Part shown: positions 36,298 through 62,163 of the stretch, piece after piece | Numbering within the stretch: the first letter of the stretch is position 1 | Layout of the letters: every line of letters begins with the position of its first letter | Position numbers and translations under genes: made by a program | From: Candidatus Poseidoniales archaeon | Lineage (GTDB): Archaea; Thermoplasmatota; Poseidoniia; Poseidoniales; Poseidoniaceae | DNA: 64,000 nt | Reading direction: 5' to 3' | NCBI GenBank assembly: GCA_038106355.1 | Contig: JAYODQ010000008.1 | Span: 3,904 to 67,903 of the forward strand | The notes under the pieces: model-generated | Told to the model about the DNA's origin: nothing | Databases searched by the model: none | What the model saw: the letters and a program-made list of their open reading frames with translations, nothing else

Positions 36298-36301
36298 AGT
36301 A

Positions 36302-36838
36302 TCACATCTTTTTCTTCGTTCGTAGTCCATTAAGAACTGTGACTCGTTCACCAAAATATCCTCGACAACTCGATATCATTTGCTGACATTGCAAAGCGAG
36401 TTGTTTGGTCATGTCGTAATCACTCTCTTGCAATGTTTTTTCGGCGCTGTTGGAAATATTTACCGCTTTGGTAATCATCTCAATTGTGTCGTGGTCATGT
36501 TTGATGAGTTTTTTGAGGTCGCTGTTGCTTGCAGAACGTTGACCCGAAAGAAATGCATGGTCCATTCCAGTGACTGCTTTATCCACATCTTCTATGAACG
36601 CATCAATTTCCTGCATACATGAACGACAAGCCGATGTCACTTCGAGTTTGTCATCGCGGAAACTTTGGTCATGAATATTCTGAATGTGACTTCTTGCTCG
36701 ATTTGAAGCACGAACAAGTTCATCCCGAACCAATTTATCCGCATCTCTTCGTTTACCTTTGGTGTATCCACTGTAACCTGTAAGGACAACTTGAATGCCC
36801 CGTATATAAGGAATTATATCGAGAGGCGTGCCTACCAT
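36302..36838 (-). CDS. Hypothetical all-helical protein co-transcribed with the SPFH protein
   Basis: 178-aa ORF 4 nt upstream of the SPFH gene. Predicted helical; no family recognised. Confidence 0.5.
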   Translation of the reverse strand: MVGTPLDIIPYIRGIQVVLTGYSGYTKGKRRDADKLVRDELVRASNRARSHIQNIHDQSFRDDKLEVTSACRSCMQEIDAFIEDVDKAVTGMDHAFLSGQRSASNSDLKKLIKHDHDTIEMITKAVNISNSAEKTLQESDYDMTKQLALQCQQMISSCRGYFGERVTVLNGLRTKKKM

Positions 36839-49468: not shown

Positions 49469-50791
49469 TTAGGAAACTGTTGAATGTAATCGGGATACAA
49501 CATGTAGAGGTTGATTTTGTATTGAATAGCAGTTGGAGAAAAAAATCATTTCTTTTTCACTGAGGGCATGTGAATGATGAACTGTGAGAACGACATCGTC
49601 TTTAGCTACCTTGTCACCAATGTGAGAATGGATGACAATTCCAACGGCATGGTCGATGTTGTCACTGAGATTGACACGTCCAGCACCCATTGTTCGTAGG
49701 TGCTCAGCGAGACCCATTGCATCAAACATTGACACATAGCCGGATGTCGAGGCTTTCACATGTGTTTTCATTCTTGATGTAGGCAACACCATTTCTGGTT
49801 TTGATACAAGTTGCTCAACTGTCTGTTTTGGCACACCCTGTGCAATACACATGGCTTTGAAGACATCCATCGCTTCGCCATTGGCTAGAACTTGACGAAT
49901 CATTTCACGACCCTCCTCCTCAGCAGGTGCGAGACCTGACAAGTGCAGTAATGCTCCGCCTTGAATGACCACGAGTTCTTTTGTATCTTCATGACCGTGT
50001 CCATTCAACACATGAATGGATTCAATCACCTCGAGTGCATTCCCAATGTGACTTCCAATGGGCTGATCCATGTGTGTGAGTTGAGCCACTGTTTTGATAC
50101 CACAACCGTTTCCAACCTCAACCATCGATCGGGCAAGTGCTCTTGCCTCCTCGAGTGTTTTCATAAATGCTGCAGAACCAAATTTGACATCCAAAACGAG
50201 GGCATCCAAACCTTCTGCCGACTTTTTCGATAGAATCGATGCTGTGATAAGTTGAATATTGTCAATGGTGTGTGTGACATCCCTCAAAGCATACAATCGA
50301 CCATCGGCTGGTGCGATATTGGAGTTTTGAGCAACGATGCAACAACCCACCTTTTCAACGATGGCTTTCATCTCCTCGGGAGTTTTGATGCATGAAAAAT
50401 GCGGAATGGATTCGAGTTTGTCGATGGTTCCACCTGTATGGCCTAAACTGCGCCCAGCGAGCATAGGTACTCGAAGACCACAAGCTGCGAGGGCAGGGGC
50501 TAGCATGATGGACATTTTATCCCCGACACCACCCGTGCTATGTTTGTCGACAACTGGTTTGTCACCTTGCCAGGTTAATGTTGCACCTGATTCTCGCATT
50601 GCCGTCGTAAGGTGAACGACATCTTCACTTGAGCAACCATATTGATGCATTGTCTGCAACCAAAGCACGACAAGTTCTTGCAAAATTGAATCGTTTTTGA
50701 CGTGCGAAATGAACTCAAAAATATCTTGTTTCTCTTGGTTTCGTCCTTCTTGAATTGAAGAAATCATCGATGAAATCTTGCTTTCATCCAT
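49469..50791 (-). CDS. deoA: Thymidine / pyrimidine-nucleoside phosphorylase
   Basis: DKHSTGGVGDK, MLAGRSLGHTGGTIDKLE, typical 440-aa length. Lacks the N-terminal extension of archaeal AMP phosphorylase. Confidence 0.88.
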   Translation of the reverse strand: MDESKISSMISSIQEGRNQEKQDIFEFISHVKNDSILQELVVLWLQTMHQYGCSSEDVVHLTTAMRESGATLTWQGDKPVVDKHSTGGVGDKMSIMLAPALAACGLRVPMLAGRSLGHTGGTIDKLESIPHFSCIKTPEEMKAIVEKVGCCIVAQNSNIAPADGRLYALRDVTHTIDNIQLITASILSKKSAEGLDALVLDVKFGSAAFMKTLEEARALARSMVEVGNGCGIKTVAQLTHMDQPIGSHIGNALEVIESIHVLNGHGHEDTKELVVIQGGALLHLSGLAPAEEEGREMIRQVLANGEAMDVFKAMCIAQGVPKQTVEQLVSKPEMVLPTSRMKTHVKASTSGYVSMFDAMGLAEHLRTMGAGRVNLSDNIDHAVGIVIHSHIGDKVAKDDVVLTVHHSHALSEKEMIFFSNCYSIQNQPLHVVSRLHSTVS

Positions 50792-50800
50792 GCCATCAAC

Positions 50801-51745
50801 TCATGATGCGAGTCCGATTTCTTTGAGTCGCTGGTAGAGAAAATCGCCTGCCTTGATGTTTGGATATTGAGCAATGCCTCCAGTCATTTCGATAAATTCA
50901 GGCAATGGCGATAGGTCAATTTCATTTCTTGGGTGAACGAACATTGGCATAGAATACCGTCTGGTGGATGCATCTTGCGGGTTCACCACGCGATGGGTTG
51001 TCGAACGAAAGAACCCATTGGTCAAGTTTTGAATCATATCGCCGGTATCGACAATGATGTGTTCTTCATTTCCCTGTACTTGAATCCATGAACCATCATG
51101 GTCCATCACTTCCAAACCATCAGCTGTAGCAGTGACAAGGAGTGTGATGAAATTGATATCCTCATGGGCTGCTGACCTTACAGCACCTTGTGGGACCTCA
51201 TGACCAAGTGGAGGATAATGGATAAGTCGCATAATGGTGTTTCCCATGTGTGTCATGTCTGGCAACCAATGCTCATCTTTGCCAAGGGCGAGTGAACATG
51301 CTCTGAGCAATTCAACCGAGAGGTGAAGCATTTGACCATACAATTGGTCGATGATTTTTCGAAACTCAGGCACGACATCATCTGGCCAAATATTTGCTGG
51401 AAATGAAGTATCGAATTCCTCCATGGATGGCAGACCCGTTTGCCAGAATTCCTTCAAGTCAGGTGCAATTTGGTCTTTTGCATGTTCTGTTCCAAAGGGC
51501 GTGTAGCCTCTTTGGTGGTGGATAGATGGTTGGGAAAATGGCAACTTTTGCGATTCATCGAGGTCAAAAAACAAGTCGCATTGGCTGTATGCATCACGAA
51601 TCAGTTGAATTGGGATGCCATGGTTTTTGAGAGCAAAGAATCCAATATTGGAGAGAGCATCTTTGAGCCCGTGTACGAAAGCATGTTTTGCTGCTGTATC
51701 TCCATGAGCGAAGTCGAAGAAGTCCAATTCAGGAATTGCCTCCAT
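50801..51745 (-). CDS. 2-oxoglutarate/Fe(II)-dependent oxygenase (IPNS/DIOX_N family)
   Basis: N-terminal DIOX_N pattern (GFFALKNHGIP), facial triad AHEDINFITLL ... TTHRV, 2OG-binding RYSMPMF. Confidence 0.85.
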   Translation of the reverse strand: MEAIPELDFFDFAHGDTAAKHAFVHGLKDALSNIGFFALKNHGIPIQLIRDAYSQCDLFFDLDESQKLPFSQPSIHHQRGYTPFGTEHAKDQIAPDLKEFWQTGLPSMEEFDTSFPANIWPDDVVPEFRKIIDQLYGQMLHLSVELLRACSLALGKDEHWLPDMTHMGNTIMRLIHYPPLGHEVPQGAVRSAAHEDINFITLLVTATADGLEVMDHDGSWIQVQGNEEHIIVDTGDMIQNLTNGFFRSTTHRVVNPQDASTRRYSMPMFVHPRNEIDLSPLPEFIEMTGGIAQYPNIKAGDFLYQRLKEIGLAS

Positions 51746-51792: not shown

Positions 51793-52587
51793 TTAATCAC
51801 TGCGTAATTTCACGATGAGTCGGACCATTTCAATGTAAATCCAAATCAGTGTGATAAGGAGGCCAAAAGCAGCATACCACTCAAATTTCTTTGGCGCTCC
51901 ATGACTGACAGACGACTGGATGAATCCAAAGTCACTCACGAGCATCAAACCCCCCACACCTAGAACCAGAACCGAGAATCCAATGCCGTATGGTCCATTG
52001 TCATGAAGGAAAGGCATTTGAGCACCGAAGAGTTGCATGATGAACGATATCAAGTACAACAACACGATGGTCAGAACCAAACTGTACACAATTTTGTTGA
52101 ATGTAGGTGTTGGTCGAATCACTTTGCTTGCGTAAAGGCCATACATCACTCCACAGAGGATTGCTGTTCCAAACACAGCCTGGAGTATCAATCCCGGAAA
52201 AATGATTTCCAAGACACTTGAAAGTCCACCAATAAACATGCCTTCTACTACGGCATAAATGGTCATCAAGGTTTGCGGATTTTCTGGCTGAGTAAAATAA
52301 ATGACAAGTACAAGAACAAACCCAACAATCGCTCCCATAGAAGTCAGTCCATAGACCAGAGCAAGATTTTCGAGCGAGGAAAGTGCGATCGCACTCGTTA
52401 TGATTGCACTCAAAAGCAGAATTCCAGTGAGGTAACCAATTTTATTCATCGTTCCCTCAAACGTCATTCTGTTGGAATCTTGCATATTTGACCAAAAATT
52501 GGTGTTCATTACCGGATTGCTGTTTGAATAGACCATGTGCCTCAACCACTGATTCGAGGAGTTCTCCTTTAATGTTATGATACTCAA
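51793..52587 (-). CDS. Bax-inhibitor-1/YccA-family membrane protein
   Basis: Seven TM. The N-terminal SNSNPVM motif is typical of the COG4760/BI-1-like group. The true start may be M18 (52536). Confidence 0.8.
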   Translation of the reverse strand: MSIITLKENSSNQWLRHMVYSNSNPVMNTNFWSNMQDSNRMTFEGTMNKIGYLTGILLLSAIITSAIALSSLENLALVYGLTSMGAIVGFVLVLVIYFTQPENPQTLMTIYAVVEGMFIGGLSSVLEIIFPGLILQAVFGTAILCGVMYGLYASKVIRPTPTFNKIVYSLVLTIVLLYLISFIMQLFGAQMPFLHDNGPYGIGFSVLVLGVGGLMLVSDFGFIQSSVSHGAPKKFEWYAAFGLLITLIWIYIEMVRLIVKLRSD

Positions 52588-55500
52588 GTGTTCTTTTCCG
52601 TTTGTTGTTGGTAATATTCGATGAGTTGGTCAACGGTCCATCCTTGGTCAAGATACTCATGTATCATATCTTCACCCCATCCGTGTAATTGCCGCTTTTG
52701 TGCTTCACTCAAACGAGGTCCATCCGCTTCTTCAACCTCGGATGCAAGCGAGCCATCAAGAACAGGTTGAATCCATTGCTTTTGTTGGATTGTCGTAAGT
52801 GAACCTACCTCAATTTCTGTTTCTTCATTGAATTCTGACTCAATGTATTCAACAGTCCCTAAATTATTCTTTTTTCTTGCCTGATAGGAGATAAATGCAC
52901 CAACAACAAAAAGAAGAGAAAAAACGAGAACATACAGCATAAGATCGCTTTCATCTTTCGAACCTTGCCCTGCATCAATACTCAACTGATTTTCTTGATC
53001 AGCGGTGCAACCCCTTGTGTTGACAAGTTGCCCGAGAGGTGATTCTGGGCAAACATCGATGTCATTTGTGACCCCATCTCCATCGGTATCAAGTGTGTTT
53101 CCTTCGGTGCCTTCCTCAATTTCGATGTCGGCTCGTTCGAGGGTACACCCCAACTCCTCCCCATCATCGATTCCATTTTCATTGGCATCAGACGAGGTCA
53201 GGGCAACATGTGGGTCAATTGATGGAGTTGAGGTATCTCTTGTCACAGCTTGTGCCCATTGAAGTTCAAGCCCATCGAGAATACAATCTCCATCGGTATC
53301 GGATGATAGAGGATTGCTTCTGTATTGATATTCAGCAAGATTTGGTAATCCATCTCCATCTGGGTCAGCTGCAGATTCAATGAAACTTTCTCCAACGACG
53401 GTGCGACGTGTTCGATGAAGTCCGTTTTCCTCCTCCCACTTGTCGTCAATCCCATCTAAATCTGAGTCAATGTCCTCCGAAAGCCGATTCCAGTCGGATA
53501 GCCAAGAATTTCGATACACTTGTGCTATGTCTTGATTTGAAAGAACAATCCCCATCTCTCGATTTCGAATGAGTGCCGAATCACCCCAATTAATGGATGA
53601 TATCAAGACTTTCTCACCATCGATAATCGCACCTTTGTTGTGCAGTTTCGTGATGAATTCGTCGGGTGACATAATAACCGCAGCAGTATCGTATCCTAAT
53701 GTTGCATTCCATTCTTCATTCATCAAATCGATCGAAGTTTGTATATCGCCGTCTAAAAATGCACCATTGAGAATGAGTCGAATTGTCACACCTCGTTCTG
53801 CAGCTTGTTGAAGTGATGAAATGATTGGATTTTCACCCCAACCATAAGACCAGTCCAAATCGAGATACTGCAAGGACAACAAAATTTCTTCATCCGAACT
53901 TTCAATGAGGTCACTTAAACCTTCAATGCACATGTCAGGACAAACAATGAGTTCGGCAGTTGCATCGACATCAAAGGGTTCAGTTGTTTGGCCAATCAAA
54001 CCAATGCCTTGGTCGAGTGTCCAACCATCTGGCTTGTCGGACAATGAAACATCCGTGAGATACATTCGGTCCACTTCTTCATCGGCCAAGAGGTGTTCAA
54101 GGACCAATTGAGCAAATTCTTGATTGTCAAGAATCATGCCCCACTCTCGATTCCCAGCTTCTCCAGTGACAGGAAGGGACGATTGCTTCCAGTTACCCGA
54201 ACCAATCCACACACTTGTTCCGTCGCGAACAGCAATTTTGCTGTGAAGATATGCATAGGGTCCATTGTAGGATTCACCAAACCACCGTACGTCGATTCCC
54301 GCCTGAAGAAGTGCAACGGCTATGCCTCTATTCTGGTCGAGTTCGTACTCGGTCCACCAGGTGTCCCCAGCATCGATGGTCACGGTGACCTCGACGCCTC
54401 GTTCGTGGGCATTGATGAGTGCCTCTGCAAGAACATCCGAGTGAAATTGATAGATGTGAATATGAAGAGTTTGCTCGGCTTGATTGATCCACGCGAGCAC
54501 ATCATGAATCCCAGAATCAGGACCGATGAGTGGAGTGATGGAGTATGTTCCGGAATGTACCCTTGTGCTACAGTGTGATGTACCACCCAGTAATTGCCAT
54601 CGGTGTTGCCAGTCATCGGCTTGGTCAGTGTCAACCATCATTTCACATCCATCGCCTCGAACATAGATGAGATTCTTCATGCCGCTCAAGGGGGCAACGA
54701 GACTCACGCCATTCCAACCAGATGACATGACAGGACCATTTTCGTAAACAACAGTATCTGCGATATTTCCAAATGGGTCTTCAAGTTGTATCGCAGCTCC
54801 TGAATTTGCGAGGTACATAGTGCGGTTGAGAACTTCTCCCATCCCTAGAATTGTGCCATCCTCATACACCGATATGGAAGCAACATCTGACGCTAAAATA
54901 ACTGAACTCATCGGCGGAATCATGAGTGTTCCAATCGACGTATTGAACGGAACCGACGTTGTCGAGATATGACGTAAGGTCCAACCCTGTAGCGAAGCAA
55001 ACGAGCCGCCGATGTTTGTAATTTCGATAAATTCCATATCGGTATCGATGTCGGTTGAAGCGTCTGGCATAATTCGTGTAAGTTTGATATCTTGGTAGGG
55101 TGCCAAATTTGAGAGGTCAGGCTCTTCTTCACCAGGTGTCGTCCAAGGCATCTTCGTCCAATTACCATTGACTTGGGCCATCGATTGACATTCAGTTACG
55201 ATGTCCCACTCGATGGTCATGATATGCTCGTGATCGGGGGTTCGAAGTTGAAATGAATCTCCCAAACCGGAAATAAACCACGGATGAAGTTGAATGACGA
55301 TGCGTTGTTGTGGTTCAACGATTGTTGAATTTGTTGAATCATTGGACCAAATATGGTCTGAGGTGATAAATGTGTAGACGCCCTCGTCATCCATCACTTG
55401 CCAGCGGGAGAGATTGATGGCCTCAACATCGTTGTTCATCACTTCAATCCAATCTTCAACAGGTGTTTGAGTTTCATCAGGGCAATAGGCAAAAATTTCG

Positions 55501-57491
55501 GTGATGGCGACATTTGTACCCCCTGAGTACAACGGCCAATGTGGATTAAGTTGATTGGGGGTGGCCCAAGGATGCTTGACAAATTCTGTGCTTGCAACAC
55601 TGCTTGGAATCAATGAAGCCAAACCTGCGTGAGTCGAATTTGCTCGAACAAGACTTTTTCCTTCCTCTGTCGCATTCCACCAAGCTGAATCGACGACGGC
55701 TCCGCTTGGTTCGACCAGAACAATCGAGTCTTGACTTGTGTGTTTTAGGTAAAACGAACTGGTTCCATTTAGAGCGATGAGTGCAACTCCACCTGCCGGG
55801 ACCAATGCATCGTTTTGAAGTGGGAAATTGAATTCATGAAGTGTAAAACTTCGACCAGACGCTTGCAATTTCCAATCGGTTACGTCAACGTCAGTCGTTC
55901 CAAAATTCTCGAGTTCAATCCATTCACCAAGAGGATAATTTTGTGAGTCACTCCCAACACCATCGGGGAGTATTTCAGAGAATCGGACTGTTGAACTTGA
56001 AGGAGTCGAGCCCGGTGCAGGCTCGCCAGGGGTCTTCCAAGGCGAAGGCACCCAAGGGTCGCCAGCATTGCTATCCCTGTGTAGAGAAACATCCTCGCCA
56101 TAATCCGTTGCATACCATGCCATGTCAACCGGCATCGAGAGAGGGTCTCGCAGAATGATGTGATTGTAATCATCCCAAAGCCTGGTGTTCGACGATAATT
56201 GAACGAGTCTGTATTCGCCTGCATCGATGATGGTGGCCCCTTGACTCAAATTGAACACGAGCGTTCCTGGGTCAAGGAAGGTCACATTACCCATGCCATC
56301 GATGATGCTCCAACCCATGAGGTCTACACTTGCAGAGCCTTGATTGTGCAATTCAATCCATTCGCCGTCTGGAAACACATCGGGTTCACTTGTGGCGTTT
56401 GGCAACACTTCACTGATGACAATATCGTTGTTTGGATTGGCGATAGAGGATAACGAGGGGGCGTTTGTTGCGTTTGGAGTGGGGTATGCTGAGATGGAAG
56501 ACCAAAACGTGGAGGTAGGTGAACCGAACAATGAAAATCCACCCACCGAAGAAGACCATTCGACCAGTTGTGAATTTGAACCATTGGGCCACTTGAGGGT
56601 CATGGCTTCAACACCATTGTTGAGCACCCCATAGGAGCCTGTGCTGTTGACTGCAATCAACCGATGTTCTCCACCTCGAATCATGAATGATGAGGTGTCC
56701 CCTGAAGCGCCAACAAGGTGGTCGATATCAAAATCAATGATGTTCCCAGCCGCATCCACGATGGACCAACCAGTCAAATCCATCGTAGCAGAGCCTGTAT
56801 TGAACACTTCAATCCATTCACCTCCTGGATAAGATGCGTTATCTTCGCTTGGCCAAGGATTTGGCATGACTTCTGAAATCACCAAATCAGATGGTATATA
56901 GGTCGTTGGCCCGCCTGGATTGTTTTGTTGTCCGGGTGTGGGTTGAGAGGTATAAATCCAGTGCGATGTAGGGCTTGCCGAATCTTCTTCGTAACTTTTG
57001 CCGGATGGTGCAGAAGAACCCCAAGAGGCTTCATGCACCTTGGTTGAAGTAGCATCGAGCAGGGAGATGCTGTCAGCGGTATTGGTCAAATAGAAATTCG
57101 AGTCACCATTTCGAGCAATGACCACATATTCTCCAGGACTAATTTCCCAAGTTTGATTGTTAGAACTTGAGTATCCTACAATTGTCGCAGCATCAAAAGC
57201 AAGAACCTTTCCAGCACTGTTTGAAACGCTCCAACCCGTCAAATCAACATCGGTTGAGCCGTCATTGTACAACTCCAACCATTCTCCGTTGGGGTAGATG
57301 TCGTCATCAAAACCATTGGGGTTTGGAATGATCTCGTTGATGCAGACGTCTGAGGTACAAGCCATGGCTCGGCCCGACGAATGTCGAGTTGAAACATCCA
57401 TTGTTTGTGTAACAGGAGTCGAAAAAATCGATGCACATAAGAGAACAATCAGCATGATGCTCATGATTTTTGAACGCATGAAACTTCTCAC
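52584..57491 (-). CDS. Giant membrane-anchored surface protein: signal peptide, 6 lamin-tail domains (LTD), 2 phospholipase-D/HKD domains, TSP3-like Ca-binding repeats, TM anchor, about 100-aa cytoplasmic tail
   Basis: Signal peptide aa 1-45. LTD repeats each start (V/I)xI(S/N/T)E(V/I)xPNP...GEWIE(L/V)xN.G...(V/M)DL.GW (aa about 45-920). HKD motifs HSKIAVRDGTSVWIGSGNW (nt 54189-54245) and HNKGAIIDGEKVLISSINW (nt 53586-53642). DxDxDG repeats aa 1340-1500. TM aa 1517-1537. Confidence 0.85.
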   Translation of the reverse strand: MRSFMRSKIMSIMLIVLLCASIFSTPVTQTMDVSTRHSSGRAMACTSDVCINEIIPNPNGFDDDIYPNGEWLELYNDGSTDVDLTGWSVSNSAGKVLAFDAATIVGYSSSNNQTWEISPGEYVVIARNGDSNFYLTNTADSISLLDATSTKVHEASWGSSAPSGKSYEEDSASPTSHWIYTSQPTPGQQNNPGGPTTYIPSDLVISEVMPNPWPSEDNASYPGGEWIEVFNTGSATMDLTGWSIVDAAGNIIDFDIDHLVGASGDTSSFMIRGGEHRLIAVNSTGSYGVLNNGVEAMTLKWPNGSNSQLVEWSSSVGGFSLFGSPTSTFWSSISAYPTPNATNAPSLSSIANPNNDIVISEVLPNATSEPDVFPDGEWIELHNQGSASVDLMGWSIIDGMGNVTFLDPGTLVFNLSQGATIIDAGEYRLVQLSSNTRLWDDYNHIILRDPLSMPVDMAWYATDYGEDVSLHRDSNAGDPWVPSPWKTPGEPAPGSTPSSSTVRFSEILPDGVGSDSQNYPLGEWIELENFGTTDVDVTDWKLQASGRSFTLHEFNFPLQNDALVPAGGVALIALNGTSSFYLKHTSQDSIVLVEPSGAVVDSAWWNATEEGKSLVRANSTHAGLASLIPSSVASTEFVKHPWATPNQLNPHWPLYSGGTNVAITEIFAYCPDETQTPVEDWIEVMNNDVEAINLSRWQVMDDEGVYTFITSDHIWSNDSTNSTIVEPQQRIVIQLHPWFISGLGDSFQLRTPDHEHIMTIEWDIVTECQSMAQVNGNWTKMPWTTPGEEEPDLSNLAPYQDIKLTRIMPDASTDIDTDMEFIEITNIGGSFASLQGWTLRHISTTSVPFNTSIGTLMIPPMSSVILASDVASISVYEDGTILGMGEVLNRTMYLANSGAAIQLEDPFGNIADTVVYENGPVMSSGWNGVSLVAPLSGMKNLIYVRGDGCEMMVDTDQADDWQHRWQLLGGTSHCSTRVHSGTYSITPLIGPDSGIHDVLAWINQAEQTLHIHIYQFHSDVLAEALINAHERGVEVTVTIDAGDTWWTEYELDQNRGIAVALLQAGIDVRWFGESYNGPYAYLHSKIAVRDGTSVWIGSGNWKQSSLPVTGEAGNREWGMILDNQEFAQLVLEHLLADEEVDRMYLTDVSLSDKPDGWTLDQGIGLIGQTTEPFDVDATAELIVCPDMCIEGLSDLIESSDEEILLSLQYLDLDWSYGWGENPIISSLQQAAERGVTIRLILNGAFLDGDIQTSIDLMNEEWNATLGYDTAAVIMSPDEFITKLHNKGAIIDGEKVLISSINWGDSALIRNREMGIVLSNQDIAQVYRNSWLSDWNRLSEDIDSDLDGIDDKWEEENGLHRTRRTVVGESFIESAADPDGDGLPNLAEYQYRSNPLSSDTDGDCILDGLELQWAQAVTRDTSTPSIDPHVALTSSDANENGIDDGEELGCTLERADIEIEEGTEGNTLDTDGDGVTNDIDVCPESPLGQLVNTRGCTADQENQLSIDAGQGSKDESDLMLYVLVFSLLFVVGAFISYQARKKNNLGTVEYIESEFNEETEIEVGSLTTIQQKQWIQPVLDGSLASEVEEADGPRLSEAQKRQLHGWGEDMIHEYLDQGWTVDQLIEYYQQQTEKNT
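54732..57359 (-). repeat. Six tandem, diverged LTD-encoding repeat units inside the giant gene (protein-level repeat)
   Basis: Units begin near aa 45, 201, 355, 501, 660 and 800, each about 115-160 aa with the conserved GEWIE..N and DL.GW cores. The DNA identity between units looks low. Confidence 0.8.
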
Positions 57492-57525: not shown

Positions 57526-59025
57526 TCACAAAAATCCAAAGGAATCAAATCGCTGGGCGAAAGTGTAAATCATAATTGGAACCAAGATAATGCCCATGCC
57601 ATGCGACCTCCGAATTCCAATTCGAGGTGGTAACAAGCCAATCAGCGTTCCTATAATGAGGACACCAATACCCACAAAGCCTGTGGTGAGCCAAACAAGG
57701 ACGACCACGAAAATAATGACCCCCATGACCATTTGTTGGAGAGGAATAGCAGCATGCAATCGAAGCATTCCTTTCCCAACGTATCGCATCATTGGCATTG
57801 CTAACAAGCCCGAAGCGAGAGTGAGGGCAAGCAATCGAATGAAATCTGAGGTTGGTTCGAGTGATGACCATGTTTCGATTGGGTACATCATTTTGAGAGC
57901 AAGGGTCGCTCCTGACCTCGACCTACCAATAATGTACAGAAAACCGAGAACCATAACTGTGACTGCGGTGTTCACGGCTGACAAAATGGCAATGACTTCA
58001 AGGTCTTGTTTGGTTTGAGGTCCTTCATAGCCCCCATCAGCTTCTGCTTTTGCGATTTCAAGCAACTCTTCATCGGTCATTTCCGTTAATTTTCGAGTTT
58101 CCCAGTCCATTCCGAATCCTTCTTTTCCTTGGATTTTCGCAGCAACATTTCTTCCACCCATGACAAGAACGGTTGCTTGAGATGCAGTCATACCCGGTAA
58201 CACTCCCATAGATGCACCCGCGACGCCTGACCAAAAGCATGGTACAATGAGTGGTCGAATCGGCGGTAAACTCCAGTCTTCTTTTTGGGGAGGTAAGTGG
58301 GAGGTTGTCGCATAGATGTCGAGGAGATTTGCGATACCAAAAAGTCCGGCAAGACTTGGCAACAAAAGACTCGCATCCGGCATTCCGACGGGTGATTGTG
58401 CAGGAAGGGTAAACACACCCCAGCCATAAAATCCTGCGAGAAGGAAGAATCCGGTTGCTGATAAAAATCCTGCGACTCGTGAATCCTTGCCAAGCCTTTT
58501 CCCACTCAATTTTTGCATCCATCTTGGCCAATCGAGTCGTGTGGTTTCAGTAGCGAGCAAAAGTAGACTGATGCCAAGCAAAAGGAACGGCAGAATATCA
58601 CGAAGTTGGTCGTACCAACCAAGTTCGGGACCAAAGGCAATCCTTGCTACAACGATGAGGGGGAGTGAAAGAAAGAGGCCAAGTTGAGATCCACGGGCAG
58701 ACCATGCGACTCCACGTGCAGCATTTCCAGCAAGTAACATTCGATGACCGGGTAGCAAGGACAGAGCAGTATCTCCATCCGGTGCACCAATGAGTGCCGA
58801 GGGGATATAATTCAGAAAGGTATGAACGGTTCCCGTCGCTACGATAATTCCCGCAACAGCAAACAGCGGAATGCCAATATCGAGCAGTGCTGGGGAGATG
58901 GCAAGAAGGATGAGGGCAACATTGTTGACGTGAAATCCAGGAATTAACCCTGTGAGTGAACCCATCATCACACCGATAAACAGGGCGATGAAAAGCCATC
59001 CAAGGTCAATAAAATAGGCTTCCAT
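57526..59025 (-). CDS. TctA-family (DUF112) tripartite-tricarboxylate-transporter-like large permease, stand-alone
   Basis: About 12 TM with GLIPGFHVNNVALIL and GVLPGMTASQATVL motifs typical of TctA/DUF112. No TctB or TctC in the window. Confidence 0.8.
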   Translation of the reverse strand: MEAYFIDLGWLFIALFIGVMMGSLTGLIPGFHVNNVALILLAISPALLDIGIPLFAVAGIIVATGTVHTFLNYIPSALIGAPDGDTALSLLPGHRMLLAGNAARGVAWSARGSQLGLFLSLPLIVVARIAFGPELGWYDQLRDILPFLLLGISLLLLATETTRLDWPRWMQKLSGKRLGKDSRVAGFLSATGFFLLAGFYGWGVFTLPAQSPVGMPDASLLLPSLAGLFGIANLLDIYATTSHLPPQKEDWSLPPIRPLIVPCFWSGVAGASMGVLPGMTASQATVLVMGGRNVAAKIQGKEGFGMDWETRKLTEMTDEELLEIAKAEADGGYEGPQTKQDLEVIAILSAVNTAVTVMVLGFLYIIGRSRSGATLALKMMYPIETWSSLEPTSDFIRLLALTLASGLLAMPMMRYVGKGMLRLHAAIPLQQMVMGVIIFVVVLVWLTTGFVGIGVLIIGTLIGLLPPRIGIRRSHGMGIILVPIMIYTFAQRFDSFGFL

Positions 59026-59028
59026 GCC

Positions 59029-60921
59029 TCACACCTGCTGTTCATATTCAGTTCGGTCATCGGTACCATCATCATCTGAATCTTCAGAAAAAGGAGATGT
59101 GCCAAACGATTCCTCAATGGTATCGGCAAGTCCATCGCCATCCGAATCAAGCGGGTCTGCATCAATCAGTCGAAAGCCCATGGAAACCTCATCGACTTCA
59201 TACTCCACGAGCCGACCCTCCCATGTCATCGACTGATTTTGATGCAGGCTGTCCATGCCAATGCCATTGCTGATGGCTGAAAGTCGAATTCGGACATCGG
59301 AGCCTTCCCTTGAAAGATACCAAATTCCTTCGTCTTCGATGGCTTTTCCATCCAAATAGACTCGTTGGTTAAGCGTGTAGCCCCATTGAACAGCACCATC
59401 ATCCCAAAGCAAAGTTCGAGGTAATGGCGAAGAGCCCAAAGTATATTCATGAATAACGAATCGTATTCTCATTTCTTGGTCATCCCAAAGGATTGAAATG
59501 TTGGCTACAATGGATTGACCTGCCTCAATCCATGTCGTTCGTGGTCCGGGAAATGTCGCTGCAATTGTCGTCCATCCAGGCATGTAGGATGCCGCATCGA
59601 CAACAAACCCTCGTTCATCATCAACCGATGGTTCGATGGCATACTTGACGAACGCAGAGACGGTGTATCGTTGGTTCTCATCCCCAAGAAGGGCGAGAGG
59701 GTCAGCGGAAAGCAGACCCAATATCGATGGTGCAGATTGAGGAATCACCATGTCTTGTGCATCTCCATTTGTTGCGTCGATGCACCACTGTGAACTGCTT
59801 GTTGACCAAGTGAGGCGCCCTCTGAACGTGATGAGCGTGTTGTGTTGCGTCTCAAGCGTTGAGCGTTCGTTCGAAAGAGGGATGACACATATGCGAGCGT
59901 TGTTTGGGCCAACCAATGACCAAACATCACCGTTGGTATCGAGCAAACCGGACATGTCGACAAGTTGACCAGATTGATAACTCCATGTCGCTTCATCAAC
60001 CCAATCGAGTTGTGCGATGAGAATTTGATGGGAAGGGTCAACAATAATTTCTGAGCCTTGAACGAGAAGGCTCCATCGAATATCCCTTTGCTGATATTGG
60101 AGGGTTCCACGAACTTGAATCTTGGATGATGCCTCAATCCACTCATGAGTTGCGGAACGAACGATGATGTGCATTTGATGGTCTGAGTTTCCATAATTCG
60201 GATGGTCTCCGAGGTATGCAGAGGTAAAGGTAGCATCAGGAGTGATCGTTTCGCCGATGAAACCAGTCAATTCAACCGTCGTGTTTGCGTACAACCATGG
60301 TTCTTTTGCCACATCAGCGATAGCAAGTTTGGTGACCAAAGGCAAGTCTCCTGCTGACCACTCAAAGGCACCAGCACCCAGCGATTGAATCCACATCCTA
60401 CCTTCGTATTCGATGACATCCCCCATGACCGTTACCTTCGTTCCAATCGGTGGCATTTGACCAGGTCGGAACCAGCGTGCTTCAACCACCCCAGTATCGT
60501 CTTCGATAATTGCATCAATTCGGTCATCTCCGCTACCGTATGGGTCTTCGACCCAAGAGATGAGGATGCCTTGCACTTTCACGACCTCATTCTTGTACTC
60601 GACGAGTTCATCGATTTCGACAATGTCAGGCTCACGAATGTAGGCATACCAATTCATTCCTGCTACAAGAAACAGAGACAGAGCAAACATCACCCAAAGT
60701 TGTTGGCCACGAACTTCTGGGTCATCGCTCGTGATTTTATTCATCATGCCCTTGAGTGCGTCTGCCATAGTTTGCCATGAAGAAGACCCATGTAAATTCA
60801 TTTTCATCGAAATTTCTTGATTCGACCATCCCTTTAAAAAACAAAAAGTAGGCCCCCAGCCATGAGTCAGATGGATAGGGTCATCAGAGATGAAATCCAT
60901 CGCGACATCCTCGTTCCCCAA
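59029..60921 (-). CDS. Membrane-anchored extracytoplasmic protein with OB-fold-like repeats and C-terminal TSP3-like Ca-binding repeat
   Basis: One TM (LWVMFALSLFLVAGMNWYAYI). The segments VVKVQGILISW....IDAIIEDDTGVVEARWF....GTKVTVMGDVIEYEGRMWI and TTVELTGFIGE...IQVRGTLQY fit the OB (tRNA_anti-like) pattern. C-terminus DADPLDSDGDGLADT...SEDSDDDGTDD. The start is uncertain (60921 or about 60807). Confidence 0.55.
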   Translation of the reverse strand: MGNEDVAMDFISDDPIHLTHGWGPTFCFLKGWSNQEISMKMNLHGSSSWQTMADALKGMMNKITSDDPEVRGQQLWVMFALSLFLVAGMNWYAYIREPDIVEIDELVEYKNEVVKVQGILISWVEDPYGSGDDRIDAIIEDDTGVVEARWFRPGQMPPIGTKVTVMGDVIEYEGRMWIQSLGAGAFEWSAGDLPLVTKLAIADVAKEPWLYANTTVELTGFIGETITPDATFTSAYLGDHPNYGNSDHQMHIIVRSATHEWIEASSKIQVRGTLQYQQRDIRWSLLVQGSEIIVDPSHQILIAQLDWVDEATWSYQSGQLVDMSGLLDTNGDVWSLVGPNNARICVIPLSNERSTLETQHNTLITFRGRLTWSTSSSQWCIDATNGDAQDMVIPQSAPSILGLLSADPLALLGDENQRYTVSAFVKYAIEPSVDDERGFVVDAASYMPGWTTIAATFPGPRTTWIEAGQSIVANISILWDDQEMRIRFVIHEYTLGSSPLPRTLLWDDGAVQWGYTLNQRVYLDGKAIEDEGIWYLSREGSDVRIRLSAISNGIGMDSLHQNQSMTWEGRLVEYEVDEVSMGFRLIDADPLDSDGDGLADTIEESFGTSPFSEDSDDDGTDDRTEYEQQV

Positions 60922-62163
60922 TCACATGCCGCAATTATTGATACACCAGAATTTCAACGATTGCGCTCAATACAACAATTATCCACATGCGAATACGTCT
61001 TTCCTGCTGCGACCCACAACCGCTTTTCTCATTCGCTCGGTGCATATCATTTAGCTGGAAAATTCATTTTCCACCTTGACGAGGTGAATTCTGGTCTTCT
61101 CTCGGAGAGCGACAAGGAGTTGGTTCAACTTGCAGCGTTGTTGCATGATGTTGGGCATCCTCCATATTCTCATCTTCTAGAAACCCCTGATGTGTTTGCA
61201 ACATTTCATTCACACGAGCATTGGGGAAAACTCATCCTCTCGAGTCACGATACTGATATCGGCCGGGCTCTTTTGCATCATTTAGGATTGGAGAGGCGAA
61301 ATCGATTGTTTTCCATTATGGATGGAGCAGATATCGATGAACAAGGTGTGGCCATCCCAAAATTCCTCAAAGAAATTGTGAGCAGCCAAGTCGATGTCGA
61401 TAGAATGGATTACATGATTCGTGACCAAGCGAACACTGGTGCTCAAATCGGGGGATTTGACAGTGCAAGAGTGATTCGAGCGCTACGAGTGAATTCCAAA
61501 GGACAATTTGTCGTCAAATCGTGGGGGTTGCCAGCCATCGAGGCTTACCTTGTGACTCGATACCATATGTATCATCAAGTGTATTTTCACAAGGTCAACA
61601 TGCTAACTCAGTCGTATCTCGTGACTTTGCTTGCACGAGCAAGGCAGTTGGCAAGCCAAGAGGCATTGACATTGAGTGATGAATTGTACGATATGCTTCT
61701 CAATCCTTCACTCACTGCTGAAAAGTATGCAAGACTCAACGACGCACATGTGAAGGTCGCCCTCCCCTACTGGGCAAATCACCCTGATGCAGTCTTGTCG
61801 GGACTTGCGAACAGACTCATTTCACGAAAGGGATTTCACAAATCCCTTCGAATTGATACGCTTACTGTTGAAATGAAAGACCTTGTGATGCCCAAAATCA
61901 AGGAAACGATTCAAGCCAACGGATTTGACCCCGAGTTCGATGTCATCGCAGCAACGATTCGAAAGCGTGGTTACCTTCCATATTCCCAAGGGATTATGCT
62001 CGAAGATGGAAGGGATGCTTCAGAACATTCTCCACTTATTCGATCGCTCATCCAACCCAAAGAGCGGGTGCTCATCTTCGTCCCCGAGGAATTGAGAAAT
62101 CAACTTGAAAACTCGGTGAGGGAGTGGATTGTACCAAGTCAATCTTCATTGTCACAATTTTGA
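60862..62163 (+). CDS. HD-domain phosphohydrolase, SAMHD1/dNTP-triphosphohydrolase-like (COG1078)
   Basis: FQRLRSIQQL, NRFSHSLGAYHLA, LLHDVGHPPYSH, DVDRMDYMIRD. Confidence 0.85.
   Translation: MSQMDRVIRDEIHRDILVPQSHAAIIDTPEFQRLRSIQQLSTCEYVFPAATHNRFSHSLGAYHLAGKFIFHLDEVNSGLLSESDKELVQLAALLHDVGHPPYSHLLETPDVFATFHSHEHWGKLILSSHDTDIGRALLHHLGLERRNRLFSIMDGADIDEQGVAIPKFLKEIVSSQVDVDRMDYMIRDQANTGAQIGGFDSARVIRALRVNSKGQFVVKSWGLPAIEAYLVTRYHMYHQVYFHKVNMLTQSYLVTLLARARQLASQEALTLSDELYDMLLNPSLTAEKYARLNDAHVKVALPYWANHPDAVLSGLANRLISRKGFHKSLRIDTLTVEMKDLVMPKIKETIQANGFDPEFDVIAATIRKRGYLPYSQGIMLEDGRDASEHSPLIRSLIQPKERVLIFVPEELRNQLENSVREWIVPSQSSLSQF

Follow-up and report, generated by a model that had tools for sequence, protein, structure and literature searches.

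What does a marine archaeon do with a protein that joins six lamin-tail domains (LTDs) to a phospholipase D (PLD)-type catalytic unit? Such a protein is encoded in a 64,000-nucleotide stretch of DNA from a Candidatus Poseidoniales archaeon (contig JAYODQ010000008.1; here called the window), at positions 52584..57491 of the minus strand, on which all features described below lie unless otherwise stated. The open reading frame (ORF) has exactly the extent given by the initial annotation and specifies 1635 amino acids (aa), arranged as six LTDs (Pfam LTD, 261.7 bits), a PLD unit with two HKD motifs (PLDc_2, 130.6 bits), a thrombospondin type 3 (TSP3)-like region, a transmembrane helix and a tail. 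It starts with GTG, which lies 6 nt from an upstream GAGGA Shine-Dalgarno-like motif, and M5, M10 and M13 may be alternative starts; a 99% identical homologue (P0001) is annotated as 1623 aa. More than 119 full-length homologues share 42-99% identity with the protein. In a locus scan of one genome per species, all 80 loci kept belong to Poseidoniales (Marine Group II). The MG-II genome of 2012 is among them, and the gene occupies one locus in each of these genomes. The protein is conserved order-wide in Poseidoniales and is not a one-off; judged by its sequence, it is a real, strongly conserved and presumably cell-surface enzyme of these abundant, uncultured archaea. The initial annotation did not recognise its architecture from any characterised protein, and a literature search found no publication on any family member. 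The architecture is nevertheless not rare, as the family spans the order and shorter proteins combining LTDs with two HKD motifs are common in other archaea. We know of no characterised example among these smaller proteins. The full-length protein is probably a tethered extracellular nuclease within a nucleic-acid scavenging locus.

The protein has exactly two hydrophobic segments (Kyte-Doolittle), aa 9-27 and aa 1517-1535. The former (peak 2.32), preceded by R2, R6 and K8, forms the core of a predicted N-terminal signal peptide or signal anchor (aa 1-30; 57402..57491), whose hydrophobicity is kept across the family while the sequence itself is not. The latter (peak 2.58; 52887..52943) is a single C-terminal transmembrane helix directly followed by ARKK, with a family mean net charge of -2.3 ahead of it and -0.2 behind it. 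The ectodomain has twelve Cys that are conserved at >=99%, whereas the tail has none, and seven N-x-S/T N-glycosylation sequons are conserved at >=97%. Because of the signal peptide, the single C-terminal helix with its ARKK, the Cys, the sequons and the calcium-loop repeats described below, the enzyme is placed outside the cell, and the predicted cell-tethered topology argues against a cytoplasmic location. With a net charge of -173 and a pI of 4.1, the ectodomain as a whole is very acidic.

Between the catalytic unit and the membrane lies an acidic region (aa 1340-1500; 52992..53474; net charge -36) with four invariant Cys and DxDxDG calcium-loop repeats at aa 1342, 1376, 1398 and 1468. These loops, described from the start as TSP3-like, are indeed present and kept across the family, but Pfam TSP_3 reaches only 21.6 bits against a cutoff of 25; some homologues match PF18884 TSP3_bac. 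Behind the membrane helix, and in agreement with the roughly 100 residues first proposed, a conserved cytoplasmic tail of 100 aa (aa 1536-1635; 52587..52886) terminates in ...DQLIEYYQQQTEKNT. The alignment reveals PVLDG and PGW..Y..QGW..QL..YY motifs, with P1576, V1577, L1578, G1604, W1605, Y1613, G1617, W1618, L1623, Y1626 and Y1627 invariant. The tail has no match in Pfam or PDB, and a profile search with it returned short fragments only.

The catalytic unit (aa 917-1340; 53472..54743) comprises a conserved pre-PLD segment carrying C949 and C974 and two PLDc_2 lobes, and 140 representative clusters match it at E<=1e-30. PLDc_2 (PF13091, cutoff 27 bits) matches at aa 1000-1133 (74.7 bits) and aa 1192-1333 (65.9 bits), and a regular-expression search located both HKD motifs, intact and at the positions originally named: H1083-S-K-IAVR-D1090 ... 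G-S-G-N1100 (54192..54245) and H1284-N-K-GAII-D1291 ... S-S-I-N1301 (53589..53642). The pattern HxK(x)4D(x)6(G/S)SxN is invariant in both copies across 119 homologues, some with as little as 42% identity (H1083, K1085, D1090, S1098, G1099 and N1100; H1284, K1286, D1291, S1298, S1299 and N1301), and no other part of the protein is as conserved as lobe b. From this invariance, catalysis is under purifying selection; taken with that of the Cys and sequons, it fits a presumed active enzyme outside the cell.

The structure prediction called for by the initial annotation yielded a two-lobed PLD fold for aa 917-1340 (AF2; pLDDT 87.4, pTM 0.87, with about the first 60 residues of the fragment at low confidence). 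Its Foldseek matches in the PDB are two-lobed PLD folds (TM-score about 0.62), headed by the Serratia PLD 7e0m, with the PLD3 and PLD4 5' exonucleases among the top matches (1e-21 to 1e-20) and PLD1 and PLD2 close behind (1e-19 to 1e-18). The predicted fold matches both these exonucleases and lipid-acting PLDs, and therefore does not settle the substrate. At the sequence level, the only significant matches in a family-profile search of the PDB were Nuc (2.4e-13), NucT (1.7e-9), Zucchini/MitoPLD (6e-9) and SpPLD (9e-4), and the single sequence likewise matched Zucchini, Nuc and NucT. The best NCBIfam and PADLOC profiles were DrmC (83.9 bits) and NucT (60.8 bits), although the curated cutoffs of these named nuclease families lie far higher, at 133 and 297. 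Scores for ClsB (29 bits, cutoff 281) and bac_cardiolipin (17 bits, cutoff 290) are far below threshold. The PLD unit thus appears to group with the nucleases Nuc, NucT, Zucchini and DrmC, and not with the cardiolipin or phosphatidylserine synthases whose company had been named beforehand as evidence against an extracellular phosphodiesterase. Furthermore, the (G/S)S positions downstream of the HKD motifs are occupied by GS and SS, which resembles the GS-GS pattern of nucleases more than the GG-GS pattern of true PLDs (PMC8004604).

A rather unlikely reading of the same unit would make the protein a phospholipase D tethered at the cell surface, or else a general phosphodiesterase for substrates other than nucleic acids. 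It would act on phospholipid head groups of algal or bacterial membranes or vesicles, on glycerophosphodiesters or on phosphodiester-linked polysaccharides, freeing phosphate-containing or choline/ethanolamine nutrients, while the LTDs and the TSP3-like region attach it to particles or prey membranes. The best structural neighbour, 7e0m, is a bacterial enzyme deposited as a phospholipase D, but its authors note nuclease-like loops and themselves question whether it is a nuclease (PMC8004604). Human PLD1 and PLD2 nearly match the Foldseek scores of PLD3 and PLD4, yet all significant sequence-level matches are nuclease-type HKD proteins. The labels 'cardiolipin synthase-like' and 'Cardiolipin synthase B' borne by homologues were assigned by automated database pipelines and are not borne out by the curated ClsB and Cls models. 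Charge speaks for lipids: neutral or zwitterionic ones suit a very acidic surface better than polyanionic DNA, and a strongly acidic ectodomain would bind DNA directly only with difficulty unless the charges were bridged by divalent cations. The conserved gene cluster described below, however, contains no lipase, esterase or glycerophosphodiester genes, but does contain OB-fold, thymidine phosphorylase and dNTPase-like genes.

The LTD array (54747..57356) was delimited by per-fragment Pfam scans and pairwise repeat identities as LTD1 (aa 46-158), LTD2 (199-311), LTD3 (351-~470), LTD4 (501-604), LTD5 (658-~780) and LTD6 (797-915). The proposal of six diverged LTDs holds by profile search: Pfam LTD (PF00932) covers six stretches of the whole protein, and LTD1-4 and LTD6 scanned singly score 70.8, 51.6, 51.0, 50.6 and 46.0 bits, all above the gathering score of 34.3 bits. 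LTD5 alone reaches only 29.9 bits and is therefore regarded as a diverged copy. In the family alignment a GEWxExxN motif is invariant within every copy, as D680-W-x-E-x2-N in LTD5 and E820-F-x-E-x2-N in LTD6; each LTD has a pI of 4.0-4.6. Of the two roles first suggested for the array, spacer or substrate-capture stalk, the former does not survive. Because the membrane anchor is C-terminal, the array lies farthest from the membrane and therefore cannot space the catalytic unit from it; it is the TSP3-like region that does so. For the array, an outward-pointing arm for capture or adhesion would be a better fit.

Could such a protein be chiefly structural or adhesive, an S-layer-like component or a particle or cell adhesin in which the function rests with the Ig-like LTDs and the calcium-binding repeats, while the PLD unit is a binding module or accessory? 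It has the traits of an archaeal envelope glycoprotein, being large and acidic with conserved sequons, Cys pairs, a signal peptide and a C-terminal transmembrane helix; it is found at one locus per genome, and conservation of its LTDs is similar to that of the PLD lobes. In addition, thrombospondin-type genes of Poseidoniales have been interpreted as adhesion factors (PMC6461757). Nevertheless, the invariance of every catalytic HKD residue, with lobe b the most conserved, is unexpected for a purely structural module, and we regard this possibility as decidedly unlikely, the more so as adhesion and catalysis can coexist.

The surroundings of the gene are fixed. The invariant order is a predicted five-OB protein, a TctA-like permease, the LTD-PLD gene, a BI-1-like gene, a 2OG oxygenase and thymidine phosphorylase (tightly spaced, from upstream to downstream, with gaps of 3 and 34 nt, an overlap of 4 nt and gaps of 47 and 9 nt), with a dNTPase-like HD gene alongside. 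This order, a new observation of the present analysis, is identical in all 80 species-level loci wherever the contig reaches (68/68 upstream; 72, 70 and 68 downstream). Collinearity among Poseidoniales, at 42-51% identity, extends over the full 25 kb surrounding the gene, and strong overall synteny alone may account for the conserved order.

Two genes upstream, a predicted membrane-anchored protein (59029..60768) contains five predicted tandem OB folds and a C-terminal TSP3-like motif; its ORF extends to 60921, but homologue N-termini point to the Met at 60768 as the likely start. It has no Pfam match at E<=10, and its homologues are conserved Poseidoniales hypothetical proteins of about 580 aa. 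The top 50 Foldseek PDB matches of its AF2 model (pLDDT 82) are all OB-fold proteins, mostly tandem-OB DNA binders (p204 HINab-dsDNA, 1.5e-10; RPA70-ssDNA, 4e-8) along with tRNA synthetase OB (anticodon-binding) domains; the OB folds and many invariant Trp could equally bind oligosaccharides. Directly upstream, 34 nt from the LTD-PLD start, lies a polytopic TctA-family membrane protein of 499 aa (57526..59025; PF01970, 146 bits) with at least eight hydrophobic segments and 78-99% identity over 68 Poseidoniales loci. Directly downstream is a BaxI_1 (BI-1/YccA-like) membrane protein (51793..52587; PF12811, 214.9 bits), present in 72 of the 80 loci and missing only at contig ends. It is followed by a 2OG-Fe(II) oxygenase (50801..51745; DIOX_N and 2OG-FeII_Oxy), whose best characterised relative appears to be thymine dioxygenase (T7H; 5c3p, E 3.3e-33 over the full length, behind two uncharacterised structures), and by a thymidine/pyrimidine-nucleoside phosphorylase (49469..50791; NF004490, 452.5 bits against a cutoff of 269; TIGR02644, 435.4 against 409). 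The AMP phosphorylase model, in contrast, reaches only 219.9 bits on the latter (cutoff 535). The divergently transcribed, dNTP triphosphohydrolase-like HD phosphohydrolase (60862..62163, plus strand; HD and HD_assoc_2) matches 2o6i (3.5e-49) and SAMHD1 (about 1e-27). The ORFs scanned in the window revealed no 5'-nucleotidase or phosphatase.

These observations are best explained by a type-I, C-terminally anchored ecto-enzyme, exported by Sec, in which six Ig-like LTDs would project farthest from the cell, followed by the two-lobed catalytic unit, a stalk of calcium-binding TSP3-like repeats that is acidic and stabilised by disulfides, the membrane helix and the cytoplasmic tail. Enzymes of the HKD superfamily cleave phosphodiesters without metal through a phospho-histidine intermediate, and the two HKD motifs would here build one active site working in this way. 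The most likely substrate would be extracellular DNA and/or RNA, making the protein a cell-bound Nuc-type nuclease. The LTD array may capture or adhere, the surface-anchored OB-fold protein would bind nucleic acid, the TctA-like permease possibly imports cleavage products, and cytoplasmic thymidine phosphorylase, the thymine-dioxygenase-like oxygenase and the dNTPase-like HD protein would process deoxynucleosides or deoxynucleotides; we infer both these roles and the coupling between the genes. The cell-tethered extracellular phosphodiesterase of the initial annotation is in any case supported by LTD profile, PLD affinity and predicted topology, the three points on which it had been staked, and the fixed cluster hints at Marine Group II archaea harvesting dissolved nucleic acids.

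A competence-like DNA-uptake apparatus, in which the OB array holds incoming DNA, the PLD nuclease processes one strand, the TctA-like protein serves as conduit and the tail couples the system to an intracellular partner, seems very improbable. The three adjacent, co-directional membrane proteins in invariant order parallel systems of receptor, membrane nuclease and channel, the conserved tail implies an intracellular partner and the TctA-like protein is unusually conserved. TctA-family proteins are, however, small-molecule carboxylate transporters, ATPase, pilus and ComEC-like genes are absent from the scanned cluster, and the downstream genes suggest nucleoside catabolism or salvage, not recombination. 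An intracellular or defence HKD protein (DISARM DrmC-like, or a cardiolipin/phosphatidylserine synthase) has next to no chance and is effectively refuted by curated cutoffs and topology: although no named profiles score higher than the DrmC models and some homologues bear the 'Cardiolipin synthase B' name, DrmC and ClsB both miss their cutoffs, no DISARM partner appears in the three flanking ORFs (PADLOC) or in Pfam/NCBIfam scans of the neighbours, the signal peptide, anchor, Cys pairs and sequons put the PLD unit outside, and the gene is core, syntenic and order-wide, not a variable island gene.

As a tethered nuclease, the LTD-PLD protein would have several known counterparts. Nuc (Salmonella plasmid pKM101) and NucT (Helicobacter pylori), its closest sequence relatives with solved structures, are secreted or periplasmic, metal-independent HKD enzymes, but are single-HKD homodimers of about 155-180 aa, whereas two diverged HKD lobes are fused here in one long chain. 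Mammalian PLD3 and PLD4, which degrade single-stranded nucleic acid, are likewise two-HKD, single-chain, membrane-anchored, glycosylated and turned towards a non-cytoplasmic compartment; they share only about 17% identity with the catalytic unit, lack a significant match to it at the sequence level, and differ in their N-terminal (type II) anchor, lysosomal location and lack of LTDs and TSP3. LTDs are already known from the characterised surface nucleases ExeM (PMC6085458), Hvo_1477 (PMC3929857) and an Izemoplasma nuclease (PMC8289736), and Xds is of the same LTD-bearing kind. ExeM (Shewanella oneidensis; LTD, OB, EEP and C-terminal anchor) and Xds (Vibrio cholerae) resemble our protein in combining a signal peptide and an N-terminal LTD with a domain that hydrolyses nucleic acids and with a membrane anchor at the C-terminus, in remaining cell-bound and in involving OB-fold nucleic-acid-binding modules (PMC6085458). 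In contrast, they have a metal-dependent EEP fold instead of HKD/PLD, one LTD instead of six, OB folds in the same chain instead of a neighbouring protein, and a GlyGly-CTERM sorting signal instead of a transmembrane helix with a conserved tail; our protein reaches 13.4 bits with the NCBIfam model of ExeM (cutoff 1300). Hvo_1477 of Haloferax volcanii is also an archaeal, surface-attached, LTD-carrying nuclease, and its deletion impairs growth on extracellular DNA as phosphorus source (PMC3929857), but it is a lipobox lipoprotein of 327 aa with a staphylococcal-nuclease (SNase) domain and one C-terminal LTD, and no homology was seen beyond the LTD. YhcR of Bacillus subtilis similarly combines OB-fold and catalytic domains in a cell-wall-tethered, sugar-non-specific nuclease (cited in PMC6085458 and PMC3929857); unlike the LTD-PLD protein, it is bacterial, sortase-anchored and built from SNase and 5'-nucleotidase domains without LTD or PLD. 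Among the distant LTD-PLD relatives examined in other archaea, the OB, TctA and thymidine phosphorylase neighbours are not kept, but a relative of 864 aa also has an HD gene adjoining.

The interval 52584-57491 on the minus strand is a single open reading frame (ORF) of 1635 codons with a GTG start and a GAGGA motif 6 nt upstream of it. Translation could instead begin at M5, M10 or M13, since a 99%-identical relative (P0001) is annotated at 1623 aa. Over the whole product, Pfam PF00932 (LTD) scored 261.7 bits in six stretches and PF13091 (PLDc_2) 130.6 bits in two, which bears out the six LTDs proposed in the initial annotation. The domain map was drawn from separate Pfam scans of ten protein fragments, with gathering scores of 34.3 bits for PF00932, 27 bits for PLDc_2 and 25 bits for TSP3. 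LTD1 (aa 46-158, 70.8 bits), LTD2 (aa 199-311, 51.6 bits), LTD3 (aa 351 to about 470, 51.0 bits), LTD4 (aa 501-604, 50.6 bits) and LTD6 (aa 797-915, 46.0 bits) all exceed the gathering score; LTD5 (aa 658 to about 780) reaches 29.9 bits alone, below that score, and is therefore regarded as a diverged copy. The PLD unit (aa 917-1340) comprises lobe a (aa 1000-1133, 74.7 bits with PLDc_2) and lobe b (aa 1192-1333, 65.9 bits), which have diverged from each other within one chain (local alignment score 96). Both HKD motifs, at H1083 and H1284, are intact and read exactly as first written. The proposal of thrombospondin-type-3-like repeats at aa 1340-1500 stands in part: the DxDxDG loops and four cysteines are invariant in the family, but profile scores of 18.1-21.6 bits (PF02412/PF18884) fall under the cutoff of 25, PF18884 being recorded for a few homologues. 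Only two hydrophobic segments are present, at the N-terminus (aa 9-27) and in a transmembrane (TM) helix at aa 1517-1535 followed by 100 residues, in keeping with the signal peptide, one TM and tail of about 100 aa originally described. No paralogue occurs in the window, as phmmer searches with the LTD, the TSP3 region and the tail against all six-frame ORFs matched only the gene itself.

We infer that residues from about 30 to 1516 lie outside the cell and that the last 100 are cytoplasmic, because the N-terminus resembles a signal peptide with basic residues before its hydrophobic core and because the single C-terminal TM is followed by ARKK in the window protein. The family mean net charge of -2.3 over the ten residues before the TM, against -0.2 over the ten after it, argues for the same orientation, as do the confinement of conserved cysteines to the ectodomain, the conserved sequons and the calcium-loop repeats. 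Since the anchor is C-terminal, the LTD array would be the most distal part of the protein and the TSP3-like region a membrane-proximal stalk. The LTDs thus do not stand between membrane and enzyme, and the earlier suggestion that they serve as a spacer is abandoned; the array appears better placed as a capture or adhesion arm. A PGF-CTERM or GlyGly-CTERM sorting signal was rejected, because the TM is followed by the conserved tail. Two tail motifs, W..PVLDG and PGW.E.M(V/I)..YLDQGWT.DQLAEYY.EQ, are kept family-wide, and PVL1576-8, GW1604-5, Y1613, GW1617-8, L1623 and YY1626-7 are conserved at >=98% in 119 homologues. When 25 tails were made into a profile and run against 5.8 billion proteins, the tail turned up in no other architecture; the only matches, of 47-158 aa, resemble fragments of family members or their split C-termini. 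Tail-only proteins of 140-160 aa (P0282, P0287 and P0314) lie on contigs of 115 kb to 940 kb and may be split genes or stand-alone tails. Nothing significant was matched by the tail in Pfam or the PDB, and a likeness to the leaderless bacteriocin enterocin JSB (E 0.056) is probably due to chance. Such a conserved cytoplasmic tail on a predicted ecto-enzyme would imply an intracellular partner.

The LTD-PLD gene is a conserved gene of the order Poseidoniales (Marine Group II, MGII). Among 5.8 billion proteins searched, more than 120 are full-length relatives (1612-1653 aa, 42-99% identical), all combining LTD with PLDc_2; one genome per GTDB species was scanned as well, and relatives are encoded in 270 stretches. 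The best 80 of these 270 loci all belong to Poseidoniales assemblies, including the 2012 MG-II genome CM001443. The window accordingly belongs to a Poseidoniales genome, and its closest relatives bear the labels Poseidonia sp. and Poseidoniales. The LTD-PLD family has been public since the first MGII genome, and it carries only generic or misleading automated names; the few named homologues are called 'lamin tail domain-containing protein [Candidatus Poseidoniaceae archaeon]', 'Cardiolipin synthase B [Euryarchaeota archaeon UBA443]' and 'PS/PGP/cardiolipin synthase-like enzyme'. In one contig filed under a 'Salipiger bermudensis' MAG (CAXQWT010000029.1), the LTD-PLD, BaxI, 2OG oxygenase and thymidine phosphorylase genes of Poseidoniales follow one another as usual, and here an archaeal contig has almost certainly been mis-binned.

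Alignment of 119 full-length homologues shows 302 positions with >=98% identity to the query; lobe b of the PLD unit is the most conserved segment. The motif HxK(x)4D(x)6(G/S)SxN is present in both lobes, with H1083, K1085, D1090, S1098 and N1100 invariant in lobe a and H1284, K1286, D1291, S1299 and N1301 in lobe b. Across the same 119 sequences the LTD copies keep a GEWxExxN signature, degenerate in LTD5 and LTD6, and seven N-x-S/T sequons are retained at >=97%. Twelve ectodomain cysteines are among the positions conserved at >=98%, and probably form the six pairs 45/50, 670/768, 949/974, 1184/1188, 1403/1449 and 1481/1495.

Compared with 1.84 billion cluster representatives, the PLD unit matches 140 clusters at E<=1e-30 and, when the threshold is relaxed to E<=1e-10, 1210; the matching proteins range in length from about 400 to about 2400 aa. 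When ten such relatives were scanned with Pfam, eight had one or two LTDs N-terminal to the PLD unit (in one of the eight the LTD fell below the Pfam cutoff and an extra PLD pair preceded it), and PKD, CARDB or TSP3_bac domains were often added. Named relatives are archaeal (Thermoplasmatota, Thermoplasmatales, Methanobacteriota and one Asgard MAG). As judged from these domain assignments, LTD plus two HKD lobes is a recurrent archaeal architecture, uncharacterised in the literature found, and the form with six LTDs, a TM and a tail is its Poseidoniales elaboration. The architecture had been put forward as unrecognised; it indeed has no characterised match in the literature found, but the core combination recurs in archaea and the full form is order-wide. 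No paper on the LTD-PLD protein, and none linking LTD with PLD, was found in the searchable literature. The contexts of distant relatives differ: one (P0153) has unrelated neighbours, and another (P0145) keeps only the HD-domain gene and the wider GARS/CarS synteny. Any locus-level argument therefore holds for Poseidoniales only. In L085 (8001-11896), the gene for a distant 864-aa relative (two LTDs, two HKD lobes and TSP3_bac, 35% identity in the PLD unit) converges on an HD/HD_assoc_2 gene, with GARS and CarS nearby; part of the Poseidoniales synteny is kept there, though not the OB-array and TctA genes.

The protein is very probably an extracellular, membrane-tethered and catalytically active HKD phosphodiesterase. 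Its likely substrate class was approached through curated models and solved structures. The Nuc/NucT nuclease models (NCBIfam NF010490-NF010493) gave at best 60.8 bits against a cutoff of 297 (cutoffs in the set being 211-351), which makes the protein a relative rather than a member of that family. A cardiolipin-synthase reading was rejected on curated cutoffs, topology and neighbours: ClsB (NF008427) scored 29 bits against 281 and the bacterial cardiolipin synthase model TIGR04265 17.2 against 290, so the unit does not show the grouping with these synthases that would have told against the initial reading. As a single sequence against PDB sequences, the PLD unit matched Zucchini/MitoPLD (1.7e-5), Nuc (5.2e-5) and NucT (3.6e-4). 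The family profile matched only Nuc (2.4e-13), NucT (1.7e-9), Zucchini/MitoPLD (6.3e-9 and 5.1e-7) and Serratia PLD (9.2e-4), with no match to a cardiolipin synthase, PLD1/2, Streptomyces PLD or PLD3/4. By these comparisons the lobes belong with the small nuclease-type HKD proteins, while falling in no curated nuclease equivalog. The residues seven positions past each HKD are G-S in lobe a and S-S in lobe b; according to the paper on the Serratia enzyme, GG/GS is typical of true PLDs and GS/GS of nucleases (PMC8004604), so that these residues are a weak pointer toward nucleases.

For aa 917-1340, AlphaFold2 with 63 homologues gives a confident model (pLDDT 87.4, pTM 0.87), apart from the poorly predicted aa ~917-977; at the level of the model this confirms the single-chain, two-lobed PLD fold expected from the sequence, in which the two motifs would share one site. 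In a Foldseek search of the PDB, Serratia PLD (7e0m) ranked first, followed by the PLD3/PLD4 5' exonucleases (E 1e-21 to 1e-20, TM about 0.62, 17% identity), PLD1/PLD2 (1e-19 to 1e-18) and poxvirus F13, with probability 1.00 to PLD3/4, PLD1/2, F13 and bacterial PLDs. Bacterial 'PLD', PLD3/4 and PLD1/2 lie within about three orders of magnitude of one another, so Foldseek does not separate substrates, and the modelled fold, fitting lipid-acting PLDs as well as enzymes acting on nucleic acids, does not decide between them and counts against too ready a nuclease assignment.

Pairing of an LTD with a surface nuclease has precedents in ExeM, which combines LTD, OB and EEP domains with a C-terminal anchor, is found in the membrane fraction and is less active in vitro when its LTD is deleted (PMC6085458), in Hvo_1477, an SNase-LTD protein required for growth on DNA (PMC3929857), and in a large LTD-bearing nuclease of DNA-degrading Izemoplasmatales (PMC8289736). 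The LTD-PLD protein would be a functional analogue of ExeM/Xds and not a member of that family: the corresponding model (NF033680) scored 13.4 bits against a cutoff of 1300, in the LTD region only, and Pfam detected no EEP catalytic domain. It also differs from Nuc/NucT, in which a single-HKD subunit forms a homodimer, by carrying two diverged lobes in one chain, and from PLD3/PLD4, which have a type II N-terminal anchor, by its C-terminal anchor, the likeness to the latter being structural only. LTD-bearing, cell-bound extracellular nucleases were thus known before, and what is new here is the predicted HKD/PLD catalytic unit. The six-LTD arm, the conserved cytoplasmic tail, a separate predicted OB-array partner and an invariant locus are also unusual.

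This locus consists of six tightly spaced genes on the minus strand. An ORF without a Pfam match (59029-60921), encoding the OB-array protein, is followed after 3 nt by a gene for a TctA-family membrane protein (57526-59025), which ends 34 nt before the LTD-PLD start; downstream, a BaxI_1 (BI-1-like) membrane protein gene (51793-52587) overlaps the LTD-PLD gene by 4 nt, and genes for a 2OG-Fe(II) oxygenase (50801-51745) and, 9 nt further on, a pyrimidine-nucleoside phosphorylase (49469-50791) complete the series. The phosphorylase passes the thymidine phosphorylase cutoff (NF004490, 452.5 bits against 269) and misses that of archaeal AMP phosphorylase (219.9 against 535). For the 2OG oxygenase, the best characterised PDB relative is the fungal thymine dioxygenase T7H (5c3p, 3.3e-33, full length), which ranks behind two uncharacterised structural-genomics entries. 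Together, the two genes at 49469-51745 may amount to a fungal-type module, here in an archaeon, for salvaging thymidine to uracil. An HD-domain gene is divergently transcribed on the plus strand (60862-62163), and its product resembles EF1143-type and SAMHD1-type dNTP triphosphohydrolases (2o6i, 3.5e-49). The TctA-like protein is 78-99% identical over 68 Poseidoniales species loci, against 44-86% for its neighbours; it matched no solved structure by sequence, and no TctB or TctC partner was seen among the flanking genes scanned.

The OB-array protein, which has no Pfam match even at E<=10, is a conserved Poseidoniales hypothetical of about 580 aa, found order-wide and rich in invariant Trp; its start is likely the Met at 60768. 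Repeated patterns in its sequence suggested OB folds, and AlphaFold2 (51-sequence alignment, pLDDT 82) models it with a helix or TM at the N-terminus and five five-stranded barrels; the C-terminus bears a TSP3-like DSDGDG motif. All of the top 50 Foldseek matches in the PDB are OB-fold proteins, most of them tandem-OB nucleic-acid binders such as p204 HINab with dsDNA (1.5e-10), RPA70 with ssDNA (4e-8), Teb1, POT1, TEBP, LEF-3 and Cdc13; in the remainder, all tRNA synthetases, the match falls on the OB (anticodon-binding) domain. A flexible five-domain chain is expected to give low global TM-scores, as it does here, and the matches to the model amount to a fold assignment and do not demonstrate binding.

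Three long contigs at 42-51% identity share one gene order (OB-array, TctA, LTD-PLD, BaxI, 2OG oxygenase, thymidine phosphorylase), and so do all 80 loci kept wherever the contig reaches (each of the two upstream genes in 68 loci, the three downstream genes in 72, 70 and 68), every absence of a neighbour falling at a contig end. This order is weak evidence of a functional link, because the whole 25 kb is collinear in these genomes. Distant archaeal relatives of the LTD-PLD protein are without the Poseidoniales neighbours, except for an adjacent HD gene in one case.

Sequence affinity and gene context lend indirect support to a putative nuclease activity on DNA or RNA, and we hold with moderate confidence that the protein works as a metal-independent HKD nuclease, tethered to the cell, with extracellular DNA and/or RNA as its substrate, and that the products enter deoxynucleoside/deoxynucleotide salvage and catabolism. 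The HKD unit would cut these substrates without metal, by way of a phospho-histidine intermediate if it follows the chemistry of its superfamily, the LTD array would form an outward capture or adhesion arm on a stalk of calcium-stabilised repeats, and nucleic acid would be held at the surface by the neighbouring OB array, with the products passing to a cytoplasmic route made up of the thymidine phosphorylase, the thymine-dioxygenase-like oxygenase and the dNTPase-like HD protein. Several observations weigh against nuclease activity. The ectodomain has a net charge of -173 and a pI of 4.1 (all LTDs 4.0-4.6), whereas 23 other proteins of the window have a median pI of 5.55, and DNA binding would therefore need cation bridging. 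OB folds can also bind sugars, and no 5'-nucleotidase or phosphatase was seen near the locus among the large window ORFs scanned.

A phospholipase or general phosphodiesterase, with which the modelled fold and the acidic surface agree, is an unlikely alternative, set against the nuclease-type affinities of the family profile. A mainly structural or adhesive envelope protein, in which the LTDs and the calcium-binding repeats would be the working parts, is improbable beside two invariant HKD motifs. Still less credence is given to a part in a competence-like DNA-uptake system, in which the predicted OB array would hold incoming DNA at the surface. An intracellular or defence role is effectively excluded: the best named NCBIfam model for the PLD unit is indeed DISARM DrmC (NF038319), and PADLOC DrmC models match both lobes, but this reading was rejected on score (83.9 bits against 133), topology and neighbours; PADLOC matched none of the three flanking ORFs that were scanned, and Pfam and NCBIfam scans of the neighbours revealed no domain of DISARM type.

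The favoured nuclease reading can be extended, as a doubtful and frankly speculative whole, to an invariant cluster that would constitute a previously undescribed archaeal surface machine harvesting nucleic acid, formed by the OB-array, TctA-like, six-LTD PLD and BI-1-like proteins together with the thymidine phosphorylase, 2OG oxygenase and HD protein. DNA or RNA caught by the OB array would be cut by the tethered HKD nuclease, oligonucleotides or nucleotides (or even DNA) would enter through the highly conserved TctA-like protein, and the cytoplasmic tail would couple the ecto-enzyme to its intracellular partner. MGII are the most abundant archaea of surface ocean water, are uncultured, and have had their substrates inferred from genomes only; organic phosphorus and nitrogen are present in large amounts as dissolved nucleic acid. 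If such a machine exists, the most abundant planktonic archaea of the ocean would have dissolved DNA or RNA among their core substrates. Published MGII analyses stress proteins, lipids, sugars and adhesion (PMC6461757), and no paper on nucleic-acid use by MGII was found in the searchable literature. A conserved cell-bound HKD nuclease with an OB partner and deoxynucleoside-catabolism genes would, if confirmed, add DNA/RNA to their predicted diet, and fusion of an LTD with a PLD-family catalytic unit, a combination common in Thermoplasmatota and other archaea, would thereby be characterised for the first time. The enzyme is plausible rather than astonishing; its value lies in a testable hypothesis on substrate use by globally abundant uncultured archaea, for which the catalytic unit (aa ~917-1340) is a concrete expressible target for biochemistry.

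Other genes of the window deserve brief mention. The only phosphatase-like gene among the window ORFs scanned, about 36 kb from the locus, encodes a 485-aa protein (15269-16726, minus strand) whose PAP2 (acid/lipid phosphatase) domain scores 29.9 bits, barely above the cutoff of 27.2. Large ORFs with no Pfam match at E<=1e-5 lie at 19703-23511 and 37529-39289 (minus strand), 32864-34363 (plus strand) and 35068-36354 (minus strand), with 637, 631, 586, 499 and 428 aa; the pair of about 630 aa lie side by side on one strand and overlap by the single base 21616. Adjoining the LTD-PLD locus, 62380-63315 on the plus strand encodes a conserved 311-aa surface protein with a signal peptide and a C-terminal TM, which scores 300.9 bits against a cutoff of 70 with NF041740, 'choice-of-anchor T family protein'.
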